DNA of 64,000 bases from Minisyncoccota bacterium (GTDB taxonomy: Bacteria; Patescibacteriota; Minisyncoccia; Phycocordibacterales; UBA9973), in assembly GCA_041659785.1 (NCBI GenBank), contig JBAZXO010000001.1, forward strand, positions 86,941 to 150,940, written 5' to 3'. Under the pieces are notes generated by a model, which did not search any database, was not told where the DNA came from, and was given only the letters and a program-made list of their open reading frames with translations. Position 1 is the first letter of the stretch. Every line of letters starts with the position of its first letter. Below are positions 4,909 through 61,466 of this stretch, one piece after another. Both the position numbers and the translations under genes were made by a program.

Positions 4909-5151
4909 TTATATTTCTGTCTCGTTAAAATTACTGTTTTCTCTAAAATTATCAAAAGGTTCACTGGGAGCTTCTAGTTCTTTGTAGTCTTTGTACAAGA
5001 GATAACTAAAAAATATAAGAACGAGTCCAGAGACAGTGAACAAGATGTCTTTCCAAGAATAAGAAAATCCCAAGTAAGGCAAAATCGCCATACAAACACC
5101 TAAAATTAAAAGTATACGTGCTTTTCGCATAAATACATTATATTTCATCAA
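4909..5151 (-). CDS. small membrane protein
   Basis: 80-aa ORF with two hydrophobic helices. Confidence 0.3.
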   Translation of the reverse strand: MMKYNVFMRKARILLILGVCMAILPYLGFSYSWKDILFTVSGLVLIFFSYLLYKDYKELEAPSEPFDNFRENSNFNETEI

Positions 5152-5182
5152 TACCTGAAATGCAAATACTAAATTATTTCGA

Positions 5183-8095: not shown

Positions 8096-9164
8096 ATTTC
8101 TCGAGGTAAGAAGTTAGCTGTCTACTTACTTTTATAAAAGTAGCTCTTTGAGGGAATTCTTTTAATTGCCTTGCTCCTATGTAGGTGGCTGTGCTTCGGA
8201 GTGAACCCAGCATGTCCTGAATGAAAACGTGTATGTCTCCTTTGTGTGGTATGAGGGTATATCTGCCTTCGCTTGCTCTGTGGGCATCCTTTTTGCCATA
8301 GAAATCTTGCATTGCTTTATTTGAAGAAGAGCCGAAATATTCTTTAAATTTTTGACCATTTTTAACTATAGTTTTACCTCCACTTTGTTCAAAGCCAGAA
8401 AACATTGATCCAAATAAATTAAAATCTGCGCCTCCACAGAAAGCCTTAGCAATGTCTGAAGGATATTGTTGTCCTCCATCGGCGATGATTCTGCCGACAC
8501 TCATACCATTTGCTATTCCGTGTGCAGAGTCCGCACATTCTATGACAGCAGAAAGCTGAGGGTATCCTACACCAGTCATTTTCCTCGTGGTACATGCTGA
8601 GCCTGGGCCGATACCAATCTTTACAATATCTGCTCCAGCTAAAATAATTTCTTCAGTAATTTCATTAGTTGCCACATTTCCTGCGATGATGATATGTTTC
8701 GGACACATCTTCCTGACATCTCTTATCGTTTCAAGGAAATTTTGCAAATATCCGTTTGGCACATCAAGGCAAATAAAAGAAAACTTTTCGAGTAAGCCTT
8801 TTTCTTTCATTAATTTTAATTGTTTGATATCTTGTTCGCGTATTCCTGAGGTGTATGCAATAAAGTCTGGGTCATCAAAAGTTTTAAAAAATTTCTCGTA
8901 ATCTTTAATAGAATAATATTTATGAAAAGTCGTAATCATTTTATACTTGGAAAGTATTTTAGCCATTTCAAAGGTTCCGCACGTGGCCATGTTCGCAGTC
9001 ATTATGGGAATGCCAGTCCACTTTTTAGGAGAGTGGTAAAAAGAAAAAGTCCTCTCGAGGATGACATCTTTCCTAGATTTTAGGGTGCTTCTTTTAGGCC
9101 GAAGCAATACGTCTTGATAATCTAATTTTACATCATCTATTATTCTCATATTTAAAGTATACAC
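8079..9164 (-). CDS. guaC: GMP reductase (IMPDH/GMPR family)
   Basis: Near-colinear similarity to E. coli GuaC: MRI.DD.KL.F.DVLLRPKRSTLKSR, CLDV.NGY and GIGPGS.CTTR. Confidence 0.8.
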   Translation of the reverse strand: MYTLNMRIIDDVKLDYQDVLLRPKRSTLKSRKDVILERTFSFYHSPKKWTGIPIMTANMATCGTFEMAKILSKYKMITTFHKYYSIKDYEKFFKTFDDPDFIAYTSGIREQDIKQLKLMKEKGLLEKFSFICLDVPNGYLQNFLETIRDVRKMCPKHIIIAGNVATNEITEEIILAGADIVKIGIGPGSACTTRKMTGVGYPQLSAVIECADSAHGIANGMSVGRIIADGGQQYPSDIAKAFCGGADFNLFGSMFSGFEQSGGKTIVKNGQKFKEYFGSSSNKAMQDFYGKKDAHRASEGRYTLIPHKGDIHVFIQDMLGSLRSTATYIGARQLKEFPQRATFIKVSRQLTSYLEKYDMGK

Positions 9165-9179
9165 TATTTTTGTTATACT

Positions 9180-10163
9180 GTGATAGTGAAAAATATCGTA
9201 ACAATTGGCGGGGGTACGGGTAGTTATACTGTCCTCTCAGGACTCAAACATATCCCAGATGTTTCTTTGTCTGCGCTTGTTTCTATGGCTGATGATGGCG
9301 GATCTACGGGGGTACTGAGGGATGAGCTCGGTGTATTGCCGCCTGGAGACGTTCGGCAATGTTTGGTGGCACTTTCTGAACATACCGATATAGTACGAAA
9401 GCTTATGAATTATAGGTTTAATGAAGGAACTCTTAAAGGACACAATTTTGGAAATATTTTCCTTGCAGCTCTGGAGAAAGTAACTGGAAATTTTATTGAA
9501 GGTGTCGAAGTGGCATCAGGAATTCTGAAAGTAAATGGTGTCGTGATACCCATAACGAGCAATAAGGCAGAATTATCTATATTGCTTTCCAATGGAAAAT
9601 TAATTGAAGGAGAAAATGAAATCAATCATTCAAATTTACAAGATGTCGGCATTGATAAGATTTTTTATAAAGACAATGTAGAATTAAACGAACACGCGAA
9701 AGAGGCTCTGTTAAAAGCTGATTATGTTATTCTCGGCCCCGGGAATTATTATTGTTCCCTTGTTCCAAATTTGATTGTGAATGGTTTTAAAGAAGCTATT
9801 ATAGAAAGTAAAGCGAAAATTATTCTGCCTATTAACCTCACAAATAAATTAGGACATACTACAAACTTCAAAGTAAGTAACTATGTGAACGATGTAGAGA
9901 AATATCTCGGTAAATTAGTCGATGTTATTTTAGTTAATAATGAAGAGCCATCAGCCGAACAAGTAGAACGATATAAACTTTTAGAAGGTGATGGTGTGCT
10001 CATCGAAGATGACTTCAAGGACGACAGAGTCGTCAGAGCTCCCCTGCTCTCGCATGTATTTTTCGAAAGAGCAGCTGCTGATGTTATACCCAGCACTAAA
10101 GGATTCATCCGTCACGATTCTGAAAAATTAGCTAACCGTATAAAAGAAATAATAAATAAATGA
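9180..10163 (+). CDS. YvcK/CofD-family protein (UPF0052, gluconeogenesis factor-like)
   Basis: IVTIGGGTGSYTVLSGLK...MADDGGSTGVLRDELGVLPPGDVRQCLVAL is the family signature. Confidence 0.8.
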   Translation: MIVKNIVTIGGGTGSYTVLSGLKHIPDVSLSALVSMADDGGSTGVLRDELGVLPPGDVRQCLVALSEHTDIVRKLMNYRFNEGTLKGHNFGNIFLAALEKVTGNFIEGVEVASGILKVNGVVIPITSNKAELSILLSNGKLIEGENEINHSNLQDVGIDKIFYKDNVELNEHAKEALLKADYVILGPGNYYCSLVPNLIVNGFKEAIIESKAKIILPINLTNKLGHTTNFKVSNYVNDVEKYLGKLVDVILVNNEEPSAEQVERYKLLEGDGVLIEDDFKDDRVVRAPLLSHVFFERAAADVIPSTKGFIRHDSEKLANRIKEIINK

Positions 10164-27085: not shown

Positions 27086-27126
27086 GGTCCTCGGTTTCCT
27101 GGGTCCCTATCCCAGCCAGACCATTC
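27086..27126. repeat. copy 1 of a 41-nt GC-rich core element (GGTCCTCGGTTTCCTGGGTCCCTATCCCAGCCAGACCATTC) nested in a 21-bp AT-rich stem (27061-27082 / 27127-27147)
   Basis: 38/41 identical to the reverse complement of 61426-61466. The flanking stems differ between copies, but each is self-complementary. Confidence 0.5.
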
Positions 27127-40362: not shown

Positions 40363-41541
40363 CTAAATAACGACTCTAGGCAACAGAGCACTAATACGTG
40401 TAGTTATTTCATAATTAATAGTATTTATACGCAAGGCCAACTCTTCGGCTGTAATTTCTTCCTTATTTTGAGCCCCGATAATTATAACTTCATCTTCTAC
40501 TTTTACATTTTTAAGATGGCTAACATTTACTACCAGCATATTCATCATTACTCGTCCTAATATTTTACATTTTGTGCCACTAATTAAGACAAAGCCATTA
40601 TTCGAAAAACCACGATCAAATCCATCAGCATAACCCTGAGGAATGATGGCAACTTTGGTTTCCTTGTTTGTTTTATAAGTTAAACCATAACCAATGGTGT
40701 TCCCTTTCGGTAAAGTTTTAATTTGTGCAATTTTTGTTTTCCAAGAGAGTACAGGCTTCAAACTAAATTTAGTTTTATAAAAATCTTTCAAATGCTCCGA
40801 AGGCCACAGGCCATACACACCGATACCAAGACGTACAAGTGGATGAATTCCTTCGCTCTTTTCATAAACCAAGAGTCCAGAAGTTGCAGAGATATGTGTT
40901 AGGAAGCTTGCCCCGCCTTGGCGTGGGTTTTTAAAACCATTTTCTTCTGCAATAGAGAGAGCTTTCTTATATTCTAAAATTTGTTTCTTTGCATGAGAGA
41001 AATCAGTGGTGTCTTCAATGTTCGCAAAGTGCGCATACATACCAGTAAGTTTTATAAATCCTGCCCGTCCTTTGACGTGGTTATGTTTTTTAATTTCTGC
41101 AAAAAGTTTAGGTAGTTCTTTCAAGAGAAAACCTTCTCTGCCGAGATAAGCATCTACTGGCACATGAATTTCTTGAACCTTTTTTAACATTTCAGCCATG
41201 GCTGAAATGTGTTCTAATTGATCTAAAGAAAAAACTGATAATACGCAACCTAATTTAATGGCTTCTTTTAAATCTAATTTTTGTACGTATCCTAAGACCA
41301 ATGTCTTTTTTGAGCTTATTTTACGTAATAATTTAAGCTCCTCGATACTATCAACTTGAAAATAGTCTACATGGGGTTCTAATATTTTTGCTATTTCATT
41401 CTGTCCGTGGCCATAAGCATTACCCTTTATGGCAACAGAAAATTTAGTTCCCTTTTTAGCTACACTTTTTAAAACTTTGATATTATGAATCAAATTTTTA
41501 CTAGAAAGTTCTATATATGAAAGTGGTAAATCTTTTTTCAC
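40363..41541 (-). CDS. alr: alanine racemase
   Basis: AIKGNAYGHG PLP-lysine motif and a C-terminal beta domain. Confidence 0.85.
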   Translation of the reverse strand: MKKDLPLSYIELSSKNLIHNIKVLKSVAKKGTKFSVAIKGNAYGHGQNEIAKILEPHVDYFQVDSIEELKLLRKISSKKTLVLGYVQKLDLKEAIKLGCVLSVFSLDQLEHISAMAEMLKKVQEIHVPVDAYLGREGFLLKELPKLFAEIKKHNHVKGRAGFIKLTGMYAHFANIEDTTDFSHAKKQILEYKKALSIAEENGFKNPRQGGASFLTHISATSGLLVYEKSEGIHPLVRLGIGVYGLWPSEHLKDFYKTKFSLKPVLSWKTKIAQIKTLPKGNTIGYGLTYKTNKETKVAIIPQGYADGFDRGFSNNGFVLISGTKCKILGRVMMNMLVVNVSHLKNVKVEDEVIIIGAQNKEEITAEELALRINTINYEITTRISALLPRVVI

Positions 41542-52020: not shown

Positions 52021-52983
52021 TTAACCGACTGATGTCATCCCTGCACTTATCTCTGATATCTCCCTCGTAATGTTCGCTTGTCTGGCTTTATTGAACATTA
52101 GAGTTAGGTCATCGATCATCTCTCCGGAAGCATCACTTGCATTTTTCATTGCTATCATTCTGGATGATTGCTCTGATGCGTTTGATTCGAGAATCATCTG
52201 ATATATTTGCATCCTTGTGAGTTTCTCAGCTAATGATTCTATCAATGTATTAAAATCTCCTTCAAATAAATAATCTATTGATTTTTCTCCAGACGTTCCT
52301 CGTCCGGAATCCGGACGAGGAACGTCTGGAGATTTTTCTGGCTCTAAAGAATCTATAACTTCTTTTAAACTATCTTTAGATATGGGCAAAATTTGTTTTA
52401 TGTTTGGTCTCTGAGTAAGGGCTGAAATAAAATCTGTGTAAGCAAATAAAACTTTATTATAATTCGCAGTACTGTATTCATCTATTGCCAACTTTGATAT
52501 TGGGAGGACATCAGAAAGAGAGATGTTATCTGGTAATTCTGTAAAGCTAGCAATGATTTTCCTACCAAGGCGACGCATAGACATATCACCCTTTTTACCG
52601 ATTGTTACAAAATCTATATTTATATTATTATTGCTTGCCCCACCATGGCGTGGGTCAAGCTTCAATAAAGAAATAACTTTTTTGATAACTTGAGCGTTGT
52701 AAGCACCACAAAGTCCACGATTGGAAGTAATAAGTATAACTAAAATATTTTCATGACTGTCTTTCTTCTCGCGTTCTAAGAAAAGTGGATGTGTAGACTC
52801 CTCTAAATTTTTAGCAATGGATGTCAAAATTTCCCAAGAATATCCGGCATACAAACGCGAAGCCAAAGTGGAAGATACGGCCCTCTTCATCTTGGAAGCA
52901 GCCACAAGCTCCATCGCCTTGGTGATTTTCTTTGTGTTCTTTACACTTTTTATTCTTCTTTTAATTTCTTTTGTCCCTGCCAT
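52021..52983 (-). CDS. atpG: F1Fo ATP synthase gamma subunit
   Basis: KEIKRRIKSVKNTKKITKAMELVAASKMKRA N-terminus and conserved C-terminal helix. Confidence 0.9.
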   Translation of the reverse strand: MAGTKEIKRRIKSVKNTKKITKAMELVAASKMKRAVSSTLASRLYAGYSWEILTSIAKNLEESTHPLFLEREKKDSHENILVILITSNRGLCGAYNAQVIKKVISLLKLDPRHGGASNNNINIDFVTIGKKGDMSMRRLGRKIIASFTELPDNISLSDVLPISKLAIDEYSTANYNKVLFAYTDFISALTQRPNIKQILPISKDSLKEVIDSLEPEKSPDVPRPDSGRGTSGEKSIDYLFEGDFNTLIESLAEKLTRMQIYQMILESNASEQSSRMIAMKNASDASGEMIDDLTLMFNKARQANITREISEISAGMTSVG

Positions 52984-55719: not shown

Positions 55720-56610
55720 TTATGCTATCTCTTTAATAAATTCTTTAACTAATTCCTTTTCACTTTCCATGCTATCGTGCGTTACCGTATTGTGGGCAGG
55801 TTCATGCTCCTCGTGTTCATCATGATCAGACGATGCAATGGTAAAGTAAACCACAAGCAAAATTGAAAAGATGAGAGCCTGAATAACTCCGACGAGCAAT
55901 TCTAGAAAAAGAAACGGAATTGGAACAATATATGCCACAAGGGCTGCCATGGAGGCCAAGAGGACCTCTCCGGCAAATACGTTACCAAATAGACGAAACG
56001 AGAGTGATGCAACTTTTGCAAATTCACCAACAATTTCGATTAAACCAACAAAGAACGTGATGGGTGCTACGAGAATAATCGTAGGCTCGTGGCGAATTTT
56101 CTTAAATATTCCTCCGAGCACTTTTAGATTAACATACTTATTGAAAGTTTTCCATATACCTATAGAAAATGCTCCGAAAAGGTTCGCACCGAGTACAGCC
56201 ATAAATGCGAGTGCAACGGTTGTGTTGATGTCTGCTGTACCTCCACGTAGAAATGGGATGAATGCTAGACCCTGTTCACTCTTTTCTACGATACCGAAAC
56301 CTCCAAGTGGCATAATACCTAGCCAATTGTTTATAAGAATAAAGAAAAAGACTGAAATAGCAAAAGGGAAAATTTTAAGAGACAATGCTCTATCATTTGT
56401 GACTTGGTCGCACATGCCTAGTGCGCCCTCCACGACAATTTCAAAAAGATTTTGTAATTTACCAGGAATTGTTTTGAGTTTAAAACGTAAAGCTAGGGAC
56501 AAGATAACAATTATTGTAACTGCAATCCAACTCGTAAGAAGTGAGTTGGTAATAGTAAAATTAGTAAACTGATGTATTGGCTCTGCAAATAATGTAATGT
56601 TTTCTTTCAT
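55720..56610 (-). CDS. atpB: F1Fo ATP synthase subunit a with His/Asp/Glu-rich C-terminal extension
   Basis: Conserved R in the penultimate helix (LSFRLFGNVFAGE). The C-terminal tail is SSDHDEHEEHEPAHNTVTHDSMESE. Confidence 0.85.
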   Translation of the reverse strand: MKENITLFAEPIHQFTNFTITNSLLTSWIAVTIIVILSLALRFKLKTIPGKLQNLFEIVVEGALGMCDQVTNDRALSLKIFPFAISVFFFILINNWLGIMPLGGFGIVEKSEQGLAFIPFLRGGTADINTTVALAFMAVLGANLFGAFSIGIWKTFNKYVNLKVLGGIFKKIRHEPTIILVAPITFFVGLIEIVGEFAKVASLSFRLFGNVFAGEVLLASMAALVAYIVPIPFLFLELLVGVIQALIFSILLVVYFTIASSDHDEHEEHEPAHNTVTHDSMESEKELVKEFIKEIA

Positions 56611-56611
56611 A

Positions 56612-56914
56612 TTATTTCTTGTCTATGTCTTGCAATTTTTTCATATAATCCTTAACCACGTAAAATATTTTAAAACATGAAAATAGGAAAGCTACGCCGG
56701 TCAAAGAAAGGAAAATGATCGGCTTTGTCCCATAGTGTGCATCCAGCATTTTACCGAAAATTAATGCCAAAACTACAGGCACCACTATCCACGTAGAAAC
56801 CTCACTAAATATCTGCATTGCTGGCTTCCACCAAGGGCCACCGCCATTGCGGGGCAAGCCACTCGGAGAGGCAGGCAAATCATTATTTAAGTTGTTTTTA
56901 TCTTCATTAATCAC
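56612..56914 (-). CDS. AtpZ/AtpI-like small membrane protein at head of atp operon
   Basis: 2-TM protein matching the ATPase_gene1 pattern (W..A......W.VVPVVLALIFG..LD...GT.P....L...G). It lies immediately upstream of atpB. Confidence 0.55.
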   Translation of the reverse strand: MINEDKNNLNNDLPASPSGLPRNGGGPWWKPAMQIFSEVSTWIVVPVVLALIFGKMLDAHYGTKPIIFLSLTGVAFLFSCFKIFYVVKDYMKKLQDIDKK

Positions 56915-57000
56915 AAAAAGAAAGGCAATTGCGCCTTTCCTATATCATACCAAAAAGGAAAAATTAATGCAAAATGTGATGTATACTATATTTATAGTAT

Positions 57001-58068
57001 ATGACCACAAACAAAAAGGTATTTTTCCAAATATTAATATTGTTACTTTTCCTCAGCACTGCAATGCCGACTTTTGCAGCTTCGGTAGCACCAGTGGTAA
57101 AAAAAGCTACAACATCAAAACCTTTAGAAAAATTATTCTACTATATTCCTGGATTTTCAACATTCTACTCCTTGCAAGCAAATGGAAACAAGGCGAATAT
57201 TTTCGCACCTCAAGTTTATAAAGTAGATGCTGATGGCGTACTCACTGGATCTATTTCTGACATAGCGCTTGAAGTTGTAAATAAAAATAAAACACCTATT
57301 ATGCCCTTGGTGTCCAATGAAAACTTCGATCCTGATACGATGCATACGATCCTACAATCAACTGATTTACAAAATAAAATTATAAGTGAATTGATTGCTG
57401 AAGCTAAGTCTAAAAATTATATCGGTTGGCAGTTTGATTTCGAACACATCATGGCCACAGATCGAAATACATTCTCTTCATTTGTAGAATTAACTGCAAA
57501 AAAACTTCACAAAGAAAAGCTGAAGCTATCGGTAGCATTGATTGCGCGTTCCTCTAACAAGCCAAGTGACCTCCCTGCAGGATCATGGGACAAATATGCT
57601 GGAGTTTTCGACTATAAACGCATTGGTAGAGCAGCGGACTTTGTAACACTTATGGCATATGACGAGCCCGCATCCGTGGGTCCGGTCGCAAGCTTGCCAT
57701 GGGTTAAAAAAGTCCTTGCCTATACTGAAAAGCACATTCCAAAATCTAAAATTTCTTTAGGCATACCTACATATGGATGGCTATGGAATACAGACACGAA
57801 TACGAAAATCCGAAGTATGCCATATCAAAAAGTTCAAGACCTCATGGATAGTAAAGGTTATATAGGTAAGGGATTTGATAAAACCTTGCAAACCTCGTGG
57901 ATTACTTACACACAAGGAGCAGGAGCAAATTTAGTCCATTACAAACTTTGGTATGAAAATGCGGCTAGCTTTAAAACAAAACTTTCTTTAGCTAAATCAC
58001 AAAAAATTAGAGGCATCTCGCTCTGGGTTGTCGGTATGGAAGATCCTAATATTTGGAAGAGTTTTTAA
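57001..58068 (+). CDS. glycoside hydrolase family 18 (chitinase-like) exported protein
   Basis: Signal peptide. The GH18 catalytic region YIGWQFDFEH matches the DxxDxDxE-type motif, and the TIM-barrel strands are conserved. Confidence 0.65.
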   Translation: MTTNKKVFFQILILLLFLSTAMPTFAASVAPVVKKATTSKPLEKLFYYIPGFSTFYSLQANGNKANIFAPQVYKVDADGVLTGSISDIALEVVNKNKTPIMPLVSNENFDPDTMHTILQSTDLQNKIISELIAEAKSKNYIGWQFDFEHIMATDRNTFSSFVELTAKKLHKEKLKLSVALIARSSNKPSDLPAGSWDKYAGVFDYKRIGRAADFVTLMAYDEPASVGPVASLPWVKKVLAYTEKHIPKSKISLGIPTYGWLWNTDTNTKIRSMPYQKVQDLMDSKGYIGKGFDKTLQTSWITYTQGAGANLVHYKLWYENAASFKTKLSLAKSQKIRGISLWVVGMEDPNIWKSF

Positions 58069-58520
58069 ACCTATTTTGATTATGAGTTATTAACATTTAG
58101 TATTGCATTTTTTTACAAATATTTTTATACTGAGATAGTGAAAAACATGATTACAAATTTCCAAAACCGACGTAGAACAATCTCAAAATTTGAGGTTGTT
58201 TAGAGTGTTTGTAATTTTTCCTAAAATATTAAAACGAACTTTCAAAAACGGCCTCAATCAAGGGGTCGTTTTTGTTCTTCATAAAGCATTTAGTTGATTT
58301 GGAAGCTCGCTTCTGAAACGAAGCAAAGAGTGTTGAAAATCGATTGCTATACCCCCGCATCGGGTGACAAATTCTTGTGACAGAAGAATGGTGCGCTGGG
58401 AACTCTGTGGCAACACAGTAGCTTTAACGGGATTGCCAATCCCATCGATACACTCTGAGCCATAGTCAGCTGAAATGCAAAAGAAAGGAGGCGCATCGGC
58501 CGCAAGCATAGCCGCATCAC

Positions 58521-58556
58521 AAAAGGGTTACGTTTAACGTAACCCTTTTCTTAATT
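58521..58556. terminator. perfect hairpin GGGTTACG-tttaa-CGTAACCC flanked by AAAA/TTTT (bidirectional terminator)
   Basis: 8-bp perfect stem with A- and T-runs on either side. It lies downstream of the yafQ-like toxin gene. Confidence 0.5.
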
Positions 58557-58582
58557 TTCCCTGAACGAGAATTATTCTGATA

Positions 58583-58864
58583 CTAAAACAACTGCGAGTG
58601 AGAGCCAATATCAACTAATATTAGAATTAAATTTTCTTTTTCTATTTTATAAATTAGAAGTAAATCCCCTTGGATATAACATTCTCGACAATCAGAGAAT
58701 TCTCCACTTAATTTGTGATCTTTATATATAAGTGGCAAATTCTTACCAATTGCAAGATAGTCTATAACAAACCCCAAATCTTTTAAAACAGATTTTTTCG
58801 CTCCAGAATTTCTAATCTTTTTAAAAGACTTTTCAAAAGATTTTGTCTTTTTTATCAAATACAT
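58583..58864 (-). CDS. yafQ: YafQ/RelE-family type II toxin (mRNA interferase)
   Basis: DH.L.G....RECYIQGDLLLIYKIEKENLILILVDIGSHSQLF matches the YafQ C-terminal signature. Confidence 0.75.
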   Translation of the reverse strand: MYLIKKTKSFEKSFKKIRNSGAKKSVLKDLGFVIDYLAIGKNLPLIYKDHKLSGEFSDCRECYIQGDLLLIYKIEKENLILILVDIGSHSQLF

Positions 58865-58865
58865 T

Positions 58866-59120
58866 TTATTTTAAATCTGCAAAAAGCTCTTTAGAATTTT
58901 TATATGATTTCCCGTATTTTAAAGCGTAGGCAATTTCTTTATCCCATTTTGCTTTTATAGAAGCAAGATTTTTTGTGGGAGTAAAAGGTAAACCATTTTC
59001 AGTAATAACTTGGTTTAAAAACATTTTAACAGCAGTAGACATATCAATGCCAAGAGAAGACAAAGTCTTATTTGCCTTATTTTTTATATTTTCTTCAATT
59101 CTTATATTTAATGTGGTCAT
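58866..59120 (-). CDS. dinJ: DinJ/RelB-family antitoxin
   Basis: MTTLNIRIEENIKNKANKTLSSLGIDMSTAVKMFLNQV matches DinJ (ribbon-helix-helix). The start is at the internal Met, so the upstream palindrome is an operator. There is a 1-nt gap to the toxin gene. Confidence 0.7.
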   Translation of the reverse strand: MTTLNIRIEENIKNKANKTLSSLGIDMSTAVKMFLNQVITENGLPFTPTKNLASIKAKWDKEIAYALKYGKSYKNSKELFADLK

Positions 59121-59149
59121 ATTGCTAGTATATACAATGTACATACATT
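59121..59149 (-). promoter_or_regulatory. dinJ-yafQ promoter with embedded palindromic operator (ACAATGT-acat-ACATTGT), probably a leaderless transcript
   Basis: On the minus strand: TTGACA, 16 nt, TATACT, 5 nt, then the ATG. The 7-bp inverted repeat at 59126-59143 sits inside the spacer. Confidence 0.4.
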
Positions 59150-59254
59150 GTCAATACAGTTATTCACAAGTTTAAAGAGCGAAAAATAGGAATCATGCCA
59201 AAAAAATACCCCTTCCTTTCGGTTGGGGCACGCATTAAGCATATATTAGATATT

Positions 59255-59566
59255 TTAGTTAGGATTTTTGAGAATATCAATCCAACCCTTGCGGTCAGAT
59301 GTTCTAAACCATCCTTTTACTTTTAAATCCAGGTTAATGGGATTATTTTTTTTAATAAATCCTTCAAAAAGCCAACTTTCCCCAGAGCCATCTTCCCATT
59401 TAAGGCTGTTGATGCCAACCTCGATATCACATGTACCACCTGGAAAATCCGGCCCATACACAGTAAAGGTCACCGTACGGTGACATCCCTTTTCAACCTT
59501 ACTAAAAAATGCAACTGCAAGATCCCACTTTGATGGAGCATTGAGGATTGAATTCATGCGTGTCAT
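59255..59566 (-). CDS. hypothetical protein
   Basis: 103-aa ORF. No motif recognised. Confidence 0.35.
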   Translation of the reverse strand: MTRMNSILNAPSKWDLAVAFFSKVEKGCHRTVTFTVYGPDFPGGTCDIEVGINSLKWEDGSGESWLFEGFIKKNNPINLDLKVKGWFRTSDRKGWIDILKNPN

Positions 59567-59712
59567 ACGACACCTCTTTAAAAGAACTTCTATGCATTAG
59601 ATGAGGAATGCATACAACCCCCTTATTTCCCATTTTTAATTGGGAAACGACTTAGCTATACAGCTAAGAATCTAAATATATTATACACTCATATTGAGTT
59701 TTCGTCAATTTG

Positions 59713-59784
59713 TGAGCGTGGATGGGATCGAACCATCGACCTCTGTCTTATCAGGACAGCGTTCTACCACTGAACTACACGCTC
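59713..59784 (-). tRNA. tRNA-Ile (anticodon GAT)
   Basis: Reverse complement folds as acceptor GAGCGTG/CACGCTC, D-arm GTTC AGTGGTA GAAC, anticodon stem CTGTC/GACAG with loop CTGATAA, and T-arm GATGG TTCGATC CCATC. Confidence 0.85.
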
Positions 59785-59884
59785 AAACAAAATTAAAGGA
59801 CACTGAAAGCCGACGTTTCAGTCGGCTCCCCGACCACATGCGTCGGGGCTACACGCCCAAAACATTAATAAATATAACACAAAT

Positions 59885-59912
59885 AAAACAAAAAACCACC
59901 TTTCGGCGGTTT
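59885..59912 (-). terminator. terminator for the RNA-binding protein gene (ACCGCC-GAAA-GGUGGU hairpin + U-run on minus strand)
   Basis: Hairpin with a GNRA loop followed by a U-run, 50 nt downstream of the stop at 59960. Confidence 0.5.
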
Positions 59913-59959
59913 TTTGTTTTTTGAGAAGTTAATTAAAACCCACGCCGAAGCGGGGCAAG

Positions 59960-60277
59960 TTAGTATTCTCGGCGTCCTCCTCCACTGTATCCACCTCGGT
60001 CATTTCCGCCAGTTCTTGGTGGGCGAGCTTCCATAGGGCGAGCTTCGTTGACAGTAAGCTTACGTCCTTCAAAATCTTGATCATTAAACATAGAAATAGC
60101 TTTTGAAGCTTCATCTTGTGATGACATTTCTACGAATCCAAAACCTTTTGAACGACCAGACATTTTGTCCATGATAATCACAGCAGAAACAACGTTTCCA
60201 GCTTGTGCGAAGAGCTCTTTAAGAGCATCCTCTTGTGTACTGTAAGGTAATCCCCCTACATATAGCTTTGTAGCCAT
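59960..60277 (-). CDS. RRM-type RNA-binding protein with Gly/Arg-rich tail
   Basis: RNP2 LYVGGL, RNP1 KGFGFVEM, and a C-terminal RGG/GGYSGGG tail. Confidence 0.8.
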   Translation of the reverse strand: MATKLYVGGLPYSTQEDALKELFAQAGNVVSAVIIMDKMSGRSKGFGFVEMSSQDEASKAISMFNDQDFEGRKLTVNEARPMEARPPRTGGNDRGGYSGGGRREY

Positions 60278-61425: not shown

Positions 61426-61466
61426 GAATGGTCTGGCTGGGATAGGGACCCAGAGATCCGAGGACC
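61426..61466. repeat. copy 2 (inverted) of the 41-nt GC-rich core element, nested in an AT-rich stem (61410-61425 / 61467-61487)
   Basis: The reverse complement GGTCCTCGGATCTCTGGGTCCCTATCCCAGCCAGACCATTC matches 27086-27126 at 38/41 positions. It lies between rpmE and prfA. Confidence 0.5.

Follow-up and report, generated by a model that had tools for sequence, protein, structure and literature searches.

A GC-rich, well-folding non-coding element between two terminators, downstream of a candidate attenuator-like leader, in a Candidatus Paceibacterota genome

A MAG of Candidatus Paceibacterota (CPR) carries, in the intergenic region between a GH18 gene and a yafQ toxin gene, a real element that is GC-enriched, unusually well-folding and non-coding, and that matches no known family. 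The element, here called X, was analyzed within a window of 64,000 nucleotides taken from a 318-kb contig of the MAG; all positions refer to the window. Our best explanation, to which we give a probability of roughly 0.4, is that X is a strain-specific non-coding RNA made only upon read-through of an upstream terminator (T1). The initial annotation had proposed a structured ncRNA or a gene remnant. The RNA half of that proposal is borne out on single-sequence evidence, namely a significant fold that favours the plus strand, GC enrichment, the exact fit of X between two terminators, and a promoter and switch-like leader upstream. The remnant half fared worse, there being no credible protein similarity. 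The structured-RNA reading is partly supported, and conservation does not contribute to that support.

The intergenic region that houses X is 514 nt long. It is bordered by the GH18 gene (57001-58068, plus strand; NCBI MFA5931909) and by the yafQ toxin gene (58583-58864, minus strand; NCBI MFA5931910, YafQ toxin), and the consecutive accessions of the two proteins indicate that no protein-coding annotation lies between them. On the GH18 side the next genes are atpB and an atpI-like gene (55720-56914, minus strand). On the other side yafQ is followed by relB (58866-59144, minus strand) and a hypothetical gene of 103 aa on the minus strand, and beyond the latter by tRNA-Ile, an RRM protein gene and prfA. 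The toxin gene is thus convergent with the element as read on the plus strand, and the plus strand beyond the second terminator (T2) is antisense to yafQ-relB. When the whole 64-kb window was scanned with Rfam 15 at gathering thresholds, 4 tRNAs were the only matches.

The interval had been flagged for a GC content above that of its surroundings, and the composition agrees: 58276-58524 contains 46.6% GC compared to 35.8% for the window. A 200-nt GC profile peaks at 0.485 (58300-58499), with the flanks and neighbouring intergenic DNA at 0.25-0.33. GC enrichment of this kind is what structural RNAs show in AT-rich genomes, and it counts in favour of the ncRNA reading. On the plus strand X (58286-58478) is predicted to form a multi-helix domain of ~193 nt between T1 and T2. 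A 14-bp helix (58286-58299/58464-58478) closes the domain, and inner helices pair 58305-58308 with 58457-58460, 58327-58333 with 58450-58456, and 58339-58344 with 58444-58449. Nested within these long-range helices, which close the whole element and which the initial annotation had missed, are hairpins at 58309-58324 (GCTTC/GAAGC), 58352-58400, 58405-58418 (CTGTG-GCAA-CACAG, with a GCAA loop) and 58429-58443 (GGGATT-GCC-AATCCC), all on the plus strand. The four hairpins that had been named at the outset are all found in the sequence, two of them with altered details. The GGGATTG hairpin exists with a stem of 6 bp and a 3-nt loop, not with 7 bp and a 1-nt loop, and the ATTCTT...AAGAAT hairpin exists at 58372-58390 with a loop of 7 nt (GTGACAG). 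The latter is unused in the minimum-free-energy fold of X.

The core of the element (58284-58482, plus strand) folds at -66.2 kcal/mol (z -4.20), and none of 200 dinucleotide shuffles was as stable. The plus-strand fold of X comprises 66 pairs, 5 of which are G-U, and the closing helix includes three U-G pairs. For the minus strand the corresponding values are -57.1 kcal/mol (z -2.34, reached by 8 of 200 shuffles) and 2 G-U pairs. Since the fold is both stronger and richer in G-U pairs on the plus strand, a plus-strand RNA is moderately preferred to a palindrome of the DNA alone. A coarse scan of the window (200-nt scanning windows with 20 shuffles each, hence noisy) yielded 21 windows out of 492 (~4%) with z<=-4, which places the fold of X in the top few percent and means that it is not unique.

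X fills exactly the gap between two features that have the G+C-rich stem-loop and T-run of intrinsic (Rho-independent) terminators. T1 (58243-58274, plus strand) has a 13-bp stem, a 6-nt loop and a T-run, and was found by a terminator scan. T2 (58521-58549, plus strand) has inverted arms of 14 nt, and TTTTCTTAATTTT comes after them; it is the terminator that had been placed at the end of the stretch from the start, and its arms are indeed perfect. The scan assigned 13 pairs to each of them, and two such structures were found where 0.6 were expected from shuffles of the region. Both are flanked by A-runs as well as T-runs and could be usable on either strand, with the better T-runs on the plus strand. 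T2 lies 34 nt past the stop codon of the convergent yafQ, and for that reason probably serves both strands. Part of it is present in a contig from a 98%-identical strain (L030), which has 58531-58582 in common with the window. Between X and T2 a single-stranded tail is predicted that contains a Shine-Dalgarno-like tract, AAAGGAGG (58483-58490, plus strand). The tract is unpaired in the predicted fold, and no start codon is found 5-12 nt after it.

Upstream of T1, a sigma-70-like promoter (58103-58131, plus strand) consists of TTGCAT (58103-58108), a 17-nt spacer and TATACT (58126-58131), with a predicted transcription start at ~58138. This hexamer pair was unlisted in the promoter consensus scan because its -35 box matches at only 3 of 6 positions. 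The promoter had been put forward as a plausible one upstream of the element. It is real, but the leader and T1 intervene, so that it does not drive X directly, and X lacks one of its own. Over 42 nt, 58115-58156 (the TATACT -10 box with about 25 nt from the beginning of the transcript) and 9163-9204 are direct repeats with 79% identity. In the latter copy lie the promoter and start of a CofD/YvcK-like gene (9186), a bona fide gene that is not preceded by a Shine-Dalgarno sequence. The CofD/YvcK-like Pfam domain begins at residue 4 of its product, which implies a leaderless or near-leaderless start. The repeat suggests that leaderless mRNAs and promoter duplication occur in this genome.

From the predicted transcription start runs a candidate leader ORF of 21 codons (58138-58203, plus strand; GTG...TAG; MKNMITNFQNRRRTISKFEVV) that itself looks leaderless; its GTG is the counterpart of the start at 9186. 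It contains three consecutive Arg codons, CGA CGT AGA (58168-58176). The tripeptide RRR occurs once in the 16,563 codons of the window's long ORFs, and its expected number in 21 codons is ~0.001. Segment 1 (58175-58186) starts right at the end of these codons and is predicted to form a 12-bp hairpin with segment 2 (58190-58201), which ends at the leader stop codon. An alternative 12-bp pairing of segment 2 with segment 3 (58246-58257), which lies within the 5' arm of T1, would make an antiterminator; segment 3 paired with segment 4 gives T1. All of these segments were assigned on the plus strand. The 1:2 hairpin has a local energy of -12.4 kcal/mol and is present in the minimum-free-energy fold of the full leader. 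When the upstream leader was dinucleotide-shuffled 3000 times, a single shuffle reached the energy of the 2:3 duplex (-15.9 kcal/mol), and as long as the 3' arm of T1 has yet to be transcribed, this pairing is the one that the nascent transcript adopts in its minimum-free-energy fold. The whole leader folds at z -4.75.

The candidate ORF thus places a run of regulatory codons at segment 1, the modelled 1:2, 2:3 and 3:4 pairings would be mutually exclusive, and the Arg codons, segment 1 and the stop codon are placed as in classical attenuation. No operon for the cognate amino acid follows, only the ORF-less X between T1 and T2. Rfam leader models gave noise-level scores on the leader (Phe_leader 17 bits vs. 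a gathering score of 55), and 192 kb of related loci, none of which span this interval, contained no homologue of the leader. We infer on good grounds, from this modelled geometry, that the leader is a candidate ribosome-mediated attenuator. The reading was formed after the sequence had been viewed, which makes its p-values post hoc, and for this reason, and because the leader has no orthologue to compare it with, we keep it at that level. The similarity of segment 1 to 3 and of segment 2 to 4 could come from a duplicated hairpin and not from selection for a switch.

If the parts act together, the unit would extend over ~410 nt (58138 to ~58550) and would comprise the promoter, the leader ORF, the switch with T1, X, the AAAGGAGG tract and T2. 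It would have two outputs, a short leader RNA that ends at T1 and a long form that includes X when T1 is read through. With the leader translated smoothly or not at all, T1 would form and only the ~137-nt leader RNA would be made; T1 would also be favoured by a ribosome that had arrived at the stop codon of the leader, since segment 2 would then be covered. A ribosome stalled on the Arg codons would instead cover segment 1. Segment 2 could then pair with the 5' arm of T1 as an antiterminator, and RNA polymerase would continue through X and end at T2. A sponge-type or trans-acting role for X would agree with its exposed Shine-Dalgarno-like tract and its compact fold, although this is pure conjecture.

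Taken to its full extent, this proposal says that an Arg-codon ribosome-stalling attenuator gates a structured non-coding RNA, and not a biosynthetic operon, in a CPR bacterium, and that the unit is a sensor of translation or Arg-tRNA status with a regulatory-RNA output in an organism unable to make its own amino acids. In that specific form we consider it rather unlikely. Attenuators normally precede protein-coding operons, and the missing ORF after the attenuator counts against the ncRNA reading in general. So do the missing promoter of X itself, the ~4% of 200-nt windows that likewise reach z<=-4, and the searches, in which no homologue of either X or the leader was found.

Known RNA classes did not account for X. 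The initial annotation had found no match to SRP, RNase P or tmRNA signature motifs or to the riboswitch consensus sequences it checked, and no Rfam family was matched either, whether 1.2 kb or X alone was scanned and whether gathering thresholds or E<=10 applied; what X alone returned at E<=10 was a single 7.8-bit partial match to Plant_SRP, for which the gathering score is 105. ARAGORN detected no tmRNA or tRNA in the element region. 6S RNA and SRP RNA were rejected, with no support from sequence features and no Rfam match at E<=10, and features supporting an integron attC site (in T2 or X), a group II intron domain V, or a hammerhead or other small ribozyme were likewise not seen. A retron msr-msd was rejected after its potential neighbours (GH18, atpI, atpB, tRNA-Ile, the RRM protein and prfA) had been checked: there is no adjacent plus-strand reverse transcriptase, and T2 and then the convergent yafQ/relB lie downstream. 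The plus-strand ORFs (28, 33 and 25 aa) are not hydrophobic and have no Shine-Dalgarno sequence, and the lone Shine-Dalgarno-like tract at 58483-58490 has no start codon, all of which speaks against a type I toxin mRNA. Recoding of TGA in the plus-strand frames was dismissed in view of stops that are a mix of TAA, TAG and TGA. The likeness of CCTCCTTTCT and TGGCTCAGA on the minus strand to 16S rRNA termini was considered a post hoc coincidence, and no rRNA match was obtained.

The comparative evidence on X is empty, not negative. The sole other copy retrieved (L001) is 100% identical. Searches of the 64-kb window and of 255 kb of related loci with blastn, nhmmer and a single-sequence covariance model gave no second copy. 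Degenerate probes from the 76-aa minus-strand frame found nothing in JGI metagenomes and IMG/VR, and the same was true of an exact 24-mer in IMG/VR and of blastn against phage and plasmid collections. Synteny on the GH18 side was followed through GTDB genomes and five further contigs, and relatives of GH18 with 80-87% protein identity (L002, L032-L036) have unrelated DNA downstream, as do the relatives of the toxin with 55-86% identity (L016-L028, 13 JGI loci). In two of the latter, ATTCGAACATCCTCCCAAGTTCGGAGCC was observed directly downstream of yafQ (L017 ~634-665 and L018 ~752-783), in surroundings that otherwise differ between the two. The contigs of closer strains end before X, at 58531, inside T2, in the 98%-identical L030 and at 57425 in L031 (94%). 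Strains of 94-98% identity are represented in ERZ27249449, ERZ27237587 and JGI 3300014208, and the organism itself was seen in SRR18595301 as well as in the two ERZ sets.

One locus (L029, JGI Ga0376277_0142816) is an identity mosaic when aligned to 55793-60188 of the window. Its block of RRM, tRNA-Ile, hypothetical gene, relB and yafQ is 94-97% identical, about 95% at the nucleotide level, and its yafQ joins straight to atpI/atpB, which are only 73-76% identical. The whole of 56981-58584, with GH18, the leader, X and T2, is missing from this locus, and the breakpoint is the yafQ stop codon (58585). The mosaic suggests, as judged from the alignment, a recent exchange between species of the block that carries the toxin-antitoxin pair. 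On the loci reached, X is strain- or species-specific and sits at a junction that varies between related genomes. Lack of conservation together with lack of transcription had been listed by the initial annotation as speaking against its proposal, and the first half of this pair is what we found, with no homologue of X anywhere searched. That none of the related loci reached contains X makes a syntenically conserved RNA less likely.

Such a distribution is also what would be seen if X were non-functional relic DNA, the unrecognisable rest of a decayed or foreign gene that was possibly once under control of the leader. X would then be stranded between two terminators at a recombination-prone junction, and its fold would merely reflect imperfect inverted repeats. 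We regard this as the main rival, somewhat less probable than the best explanation. It fits the fact that X is missing from all relatives examined, including the locus that has the same toxin-antitoxin pair (95%) joined directly to atpI, and it fits the unrelated downstream DNA in the GH18 and toxin relatives, the missing promoter of X, a GC content (46.6%) that resembles coding or foreign DNA, and the two long stop-free frames on the minus strand. The protein searches weigh on the other side. The similarity check that had been recommended for revealing a pseudogene was run, and it produced no credible match in any frame: a concatenated six-frame query had none at E<=10 among 5.8 billion protein clusters, and Pfam matched none of 10 frame segments. 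With phmmer, the 82-residue minus-strand frame matched three of 1.84 billion representatives, all of them repeat proteins aligned through 5-8 stretches, in which a single unit gave 11/19 identities and 25 bits; these scores are sums over the stretches, and the matches were therefore rejected as artefacts. Tblastn of all ORFs against the window revealed no paralogue remnant, and tblastn and tblastx against the window and related loci gave nothing credible. A tblastx double match to 4966-5166 was discarded, being antisense to a real gene there and resting on a 12-nt DNA match. A gene fragment could have decayed past recognition. Stops in the plus-strand frames of X are about as frequent as in random sequence, the fold is significant and favours one strand, and the leader has kept both its ORF and its 12-bp alternative pairings intact, which would not be expected of a long-dead unit.

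The strand bias of the fold bears also on the idea that the minus strand of X is an extended 3' UTR of the relB-yafQ operon, transcribed by read-through of T2 and ending at T1, which we regard as unlikely. The minus-strand T-run of T2 is short (TTTT, then G), which makes read-through plausible, T1 also has a minus-strand T-run, and the minus strand folds better than chance (z -2.34, 8 of 200 shuffles). That fold is, however, 9 kcal/mol weaker than the plus-strand fold and has fewer G-U pairs, and X was found beside the toxin-antitoxin pair in 0 of 14 relatives, one of these 95% identical. A further point, that 58290-58311 in the 5' part of X is 73% complementary (16/22) to 58597-58618 at the 3' end of yafQ, read on the same DNA strand, is offset by the fact that such a value is what chance would give in an AT-rich region of 2 kb. 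The complementarity, although probably due to chance, would permit pairing in a minus-strand read-through transcript.

Less probable again is that X is MITE-like, a small element that is mobile but non-autonomous, or else associated with recombination, whose terminal inverted repeats would be 58286-58299 and 58464-58478. The outer ~35 nt on each side do form an extended imperfect inverted repeat, X lies within a segment that differs between related genomes, and the genome has at least one other repeated palindromic element (27086-27122 and 61430-61466). Against this, X has inverted termini but no further copy of it came up in the 64-kb window or in 255 kb of related DNA (blastn, nhmmer and covariance model), the JGI metagenome, IMG/VR, phage and plasmid searches returned nothing, no clear target-site duplication was seen, and the closing helix, with its three U-G pairs, is more in keeping with a helix of RNA than with one of DNA. 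Finally, it is very improbable that X encodes a small protein, either in a 25-33-aa plus-strand ORF or in the 76-codon open frame of the ORF list (58279-58509, minus strand; judged non-coding), for although the latter is uninterrupted and stop-free over 82 codons, a stop-free frame of this kind is by our estimate expected in ~1/6 of random segments of this GC content, and the frame has, as first described, neither a ribosome-binding site (no Shine-Dalgarno sequence) nor a Pfam domain, no promoter, a composition apart from that of the window's genes (Lys 1.3% vs. 9.5%, GC3 41% vs. 28%), no homologue in six-frame, Pfam and phmmer searches, and no call in the NCBI annotation. The initial view that the interval holds no convincing ORF is in line with the absence of a coding signal in any frame.

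Other repeated or palindromic sequences were observed elsewhere in the window. A GC-rich core of 37 nt, GGTCCTCGG.T..CTGGGTCCCTATCCCAGCCAGACC, is present twice, at 27086-27122 (plus strand) and 61430-61466 (minus strand), within ~97-nt AT-rich palindromic flanks, and one copy lies just upstream of prfA in sense orientation. A pattern search gave 2 matches where 0 were expected. The core has no Rfam match and is not in 36 related loci; the two copies may represent a small structured repeat. The ATP synthase gamma-subunit gene (52021-52983, minus strand) harbours at 52286-52332 a pair of perfect 22-bp inverted arms around a 3-nt loop, CTCCAGACGTTCCTCGTCCGG-AAT-CCGGACGAGGAACGTCTGGAG, and the surrounding 200 nt fold at z -7.6. 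A 25-nt GC-rich sequence, CTTGCCCCGCCTTGGCGTGGGTTTT, and its complement are found at 40907-40931 and 59935-59959 with 92% identity, one copy just downstream of the RRM-protein gene. This is probably a reused terminator hairpin.

At present X is a single-genome orphan, and its main value is that of a concrete and cheaply testable candidate. If it is a relic, it merely marks a strain-variable junction. Should the unit be functional, it would be an instance of classical leader-peptide attenuation from the Candidate Phyla Radiation, and an unusual one in that the controlled product is an RNA and not an operon; it would also offer a hint of the way in which ultra-small symbionts sense their supply of amino acids.

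Among known systems, X as a structured non-coding RNA resembles orphan strain-specific sRNAs with Rho-independent terminators in being stand-alone, intergenic, GC-enriched in an AT-rich genome, equipped with a strong terminator and without a family. Unlike typical members of that group, it is larger and more branched (~195 nt, a 14-bp closing helix and at least 4 internal helices) and has no promoter of its own. It falls in the size range of 6S RNA and shares with it the pairing of the 5' and 3' ends. It differs from 6S RNA, SRP RNA, RNase P RNA and tmRNA in that it has no Rfam match at E<=10 and no tmRNA call by ARAGORN, and in that its predicted fold is branched with no central bubble.

The leader is best compared with the attenuators trpL, pheL, hisL, leuL and thrL of Enterobacteria. 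Alike are the promoter, the short ORF, the run of codons for one amino acid just before segment 1, the stop codon in segment 2, and the predicted mutually exclusive 1:2, 2:3 and 3:4 pairings, of which 3:4 is an intrinsic terminator. In contrast to the enterobacterial systems, the codons here are for Arg, the ORF is apparently leaderless, no biosynthetic gene or ORF follows, and the host is a CPR bacterium. CPR bacteria generally lack amino-acid biosynthesis, and we know of no classical Arg attenuator. For an RNA as the controlled product, the closest likeness is to the B12-controlled EutX of Enterococcus and Rli55 of Listeria, reportedly described in 2014 by DebRoy et al. and by Mellin et al. 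as riboswitch-gated non-coding RNAs. The sensor here would be a translated leader peptide and not a ligand-binding aptamer, and there is no sequence or structural similarity to either RNA. The logic would nevertheless be the same: a conditional terminator upstream decides whether the body of a non-coding RNA is made downstream, and the long form contains the functional domain.
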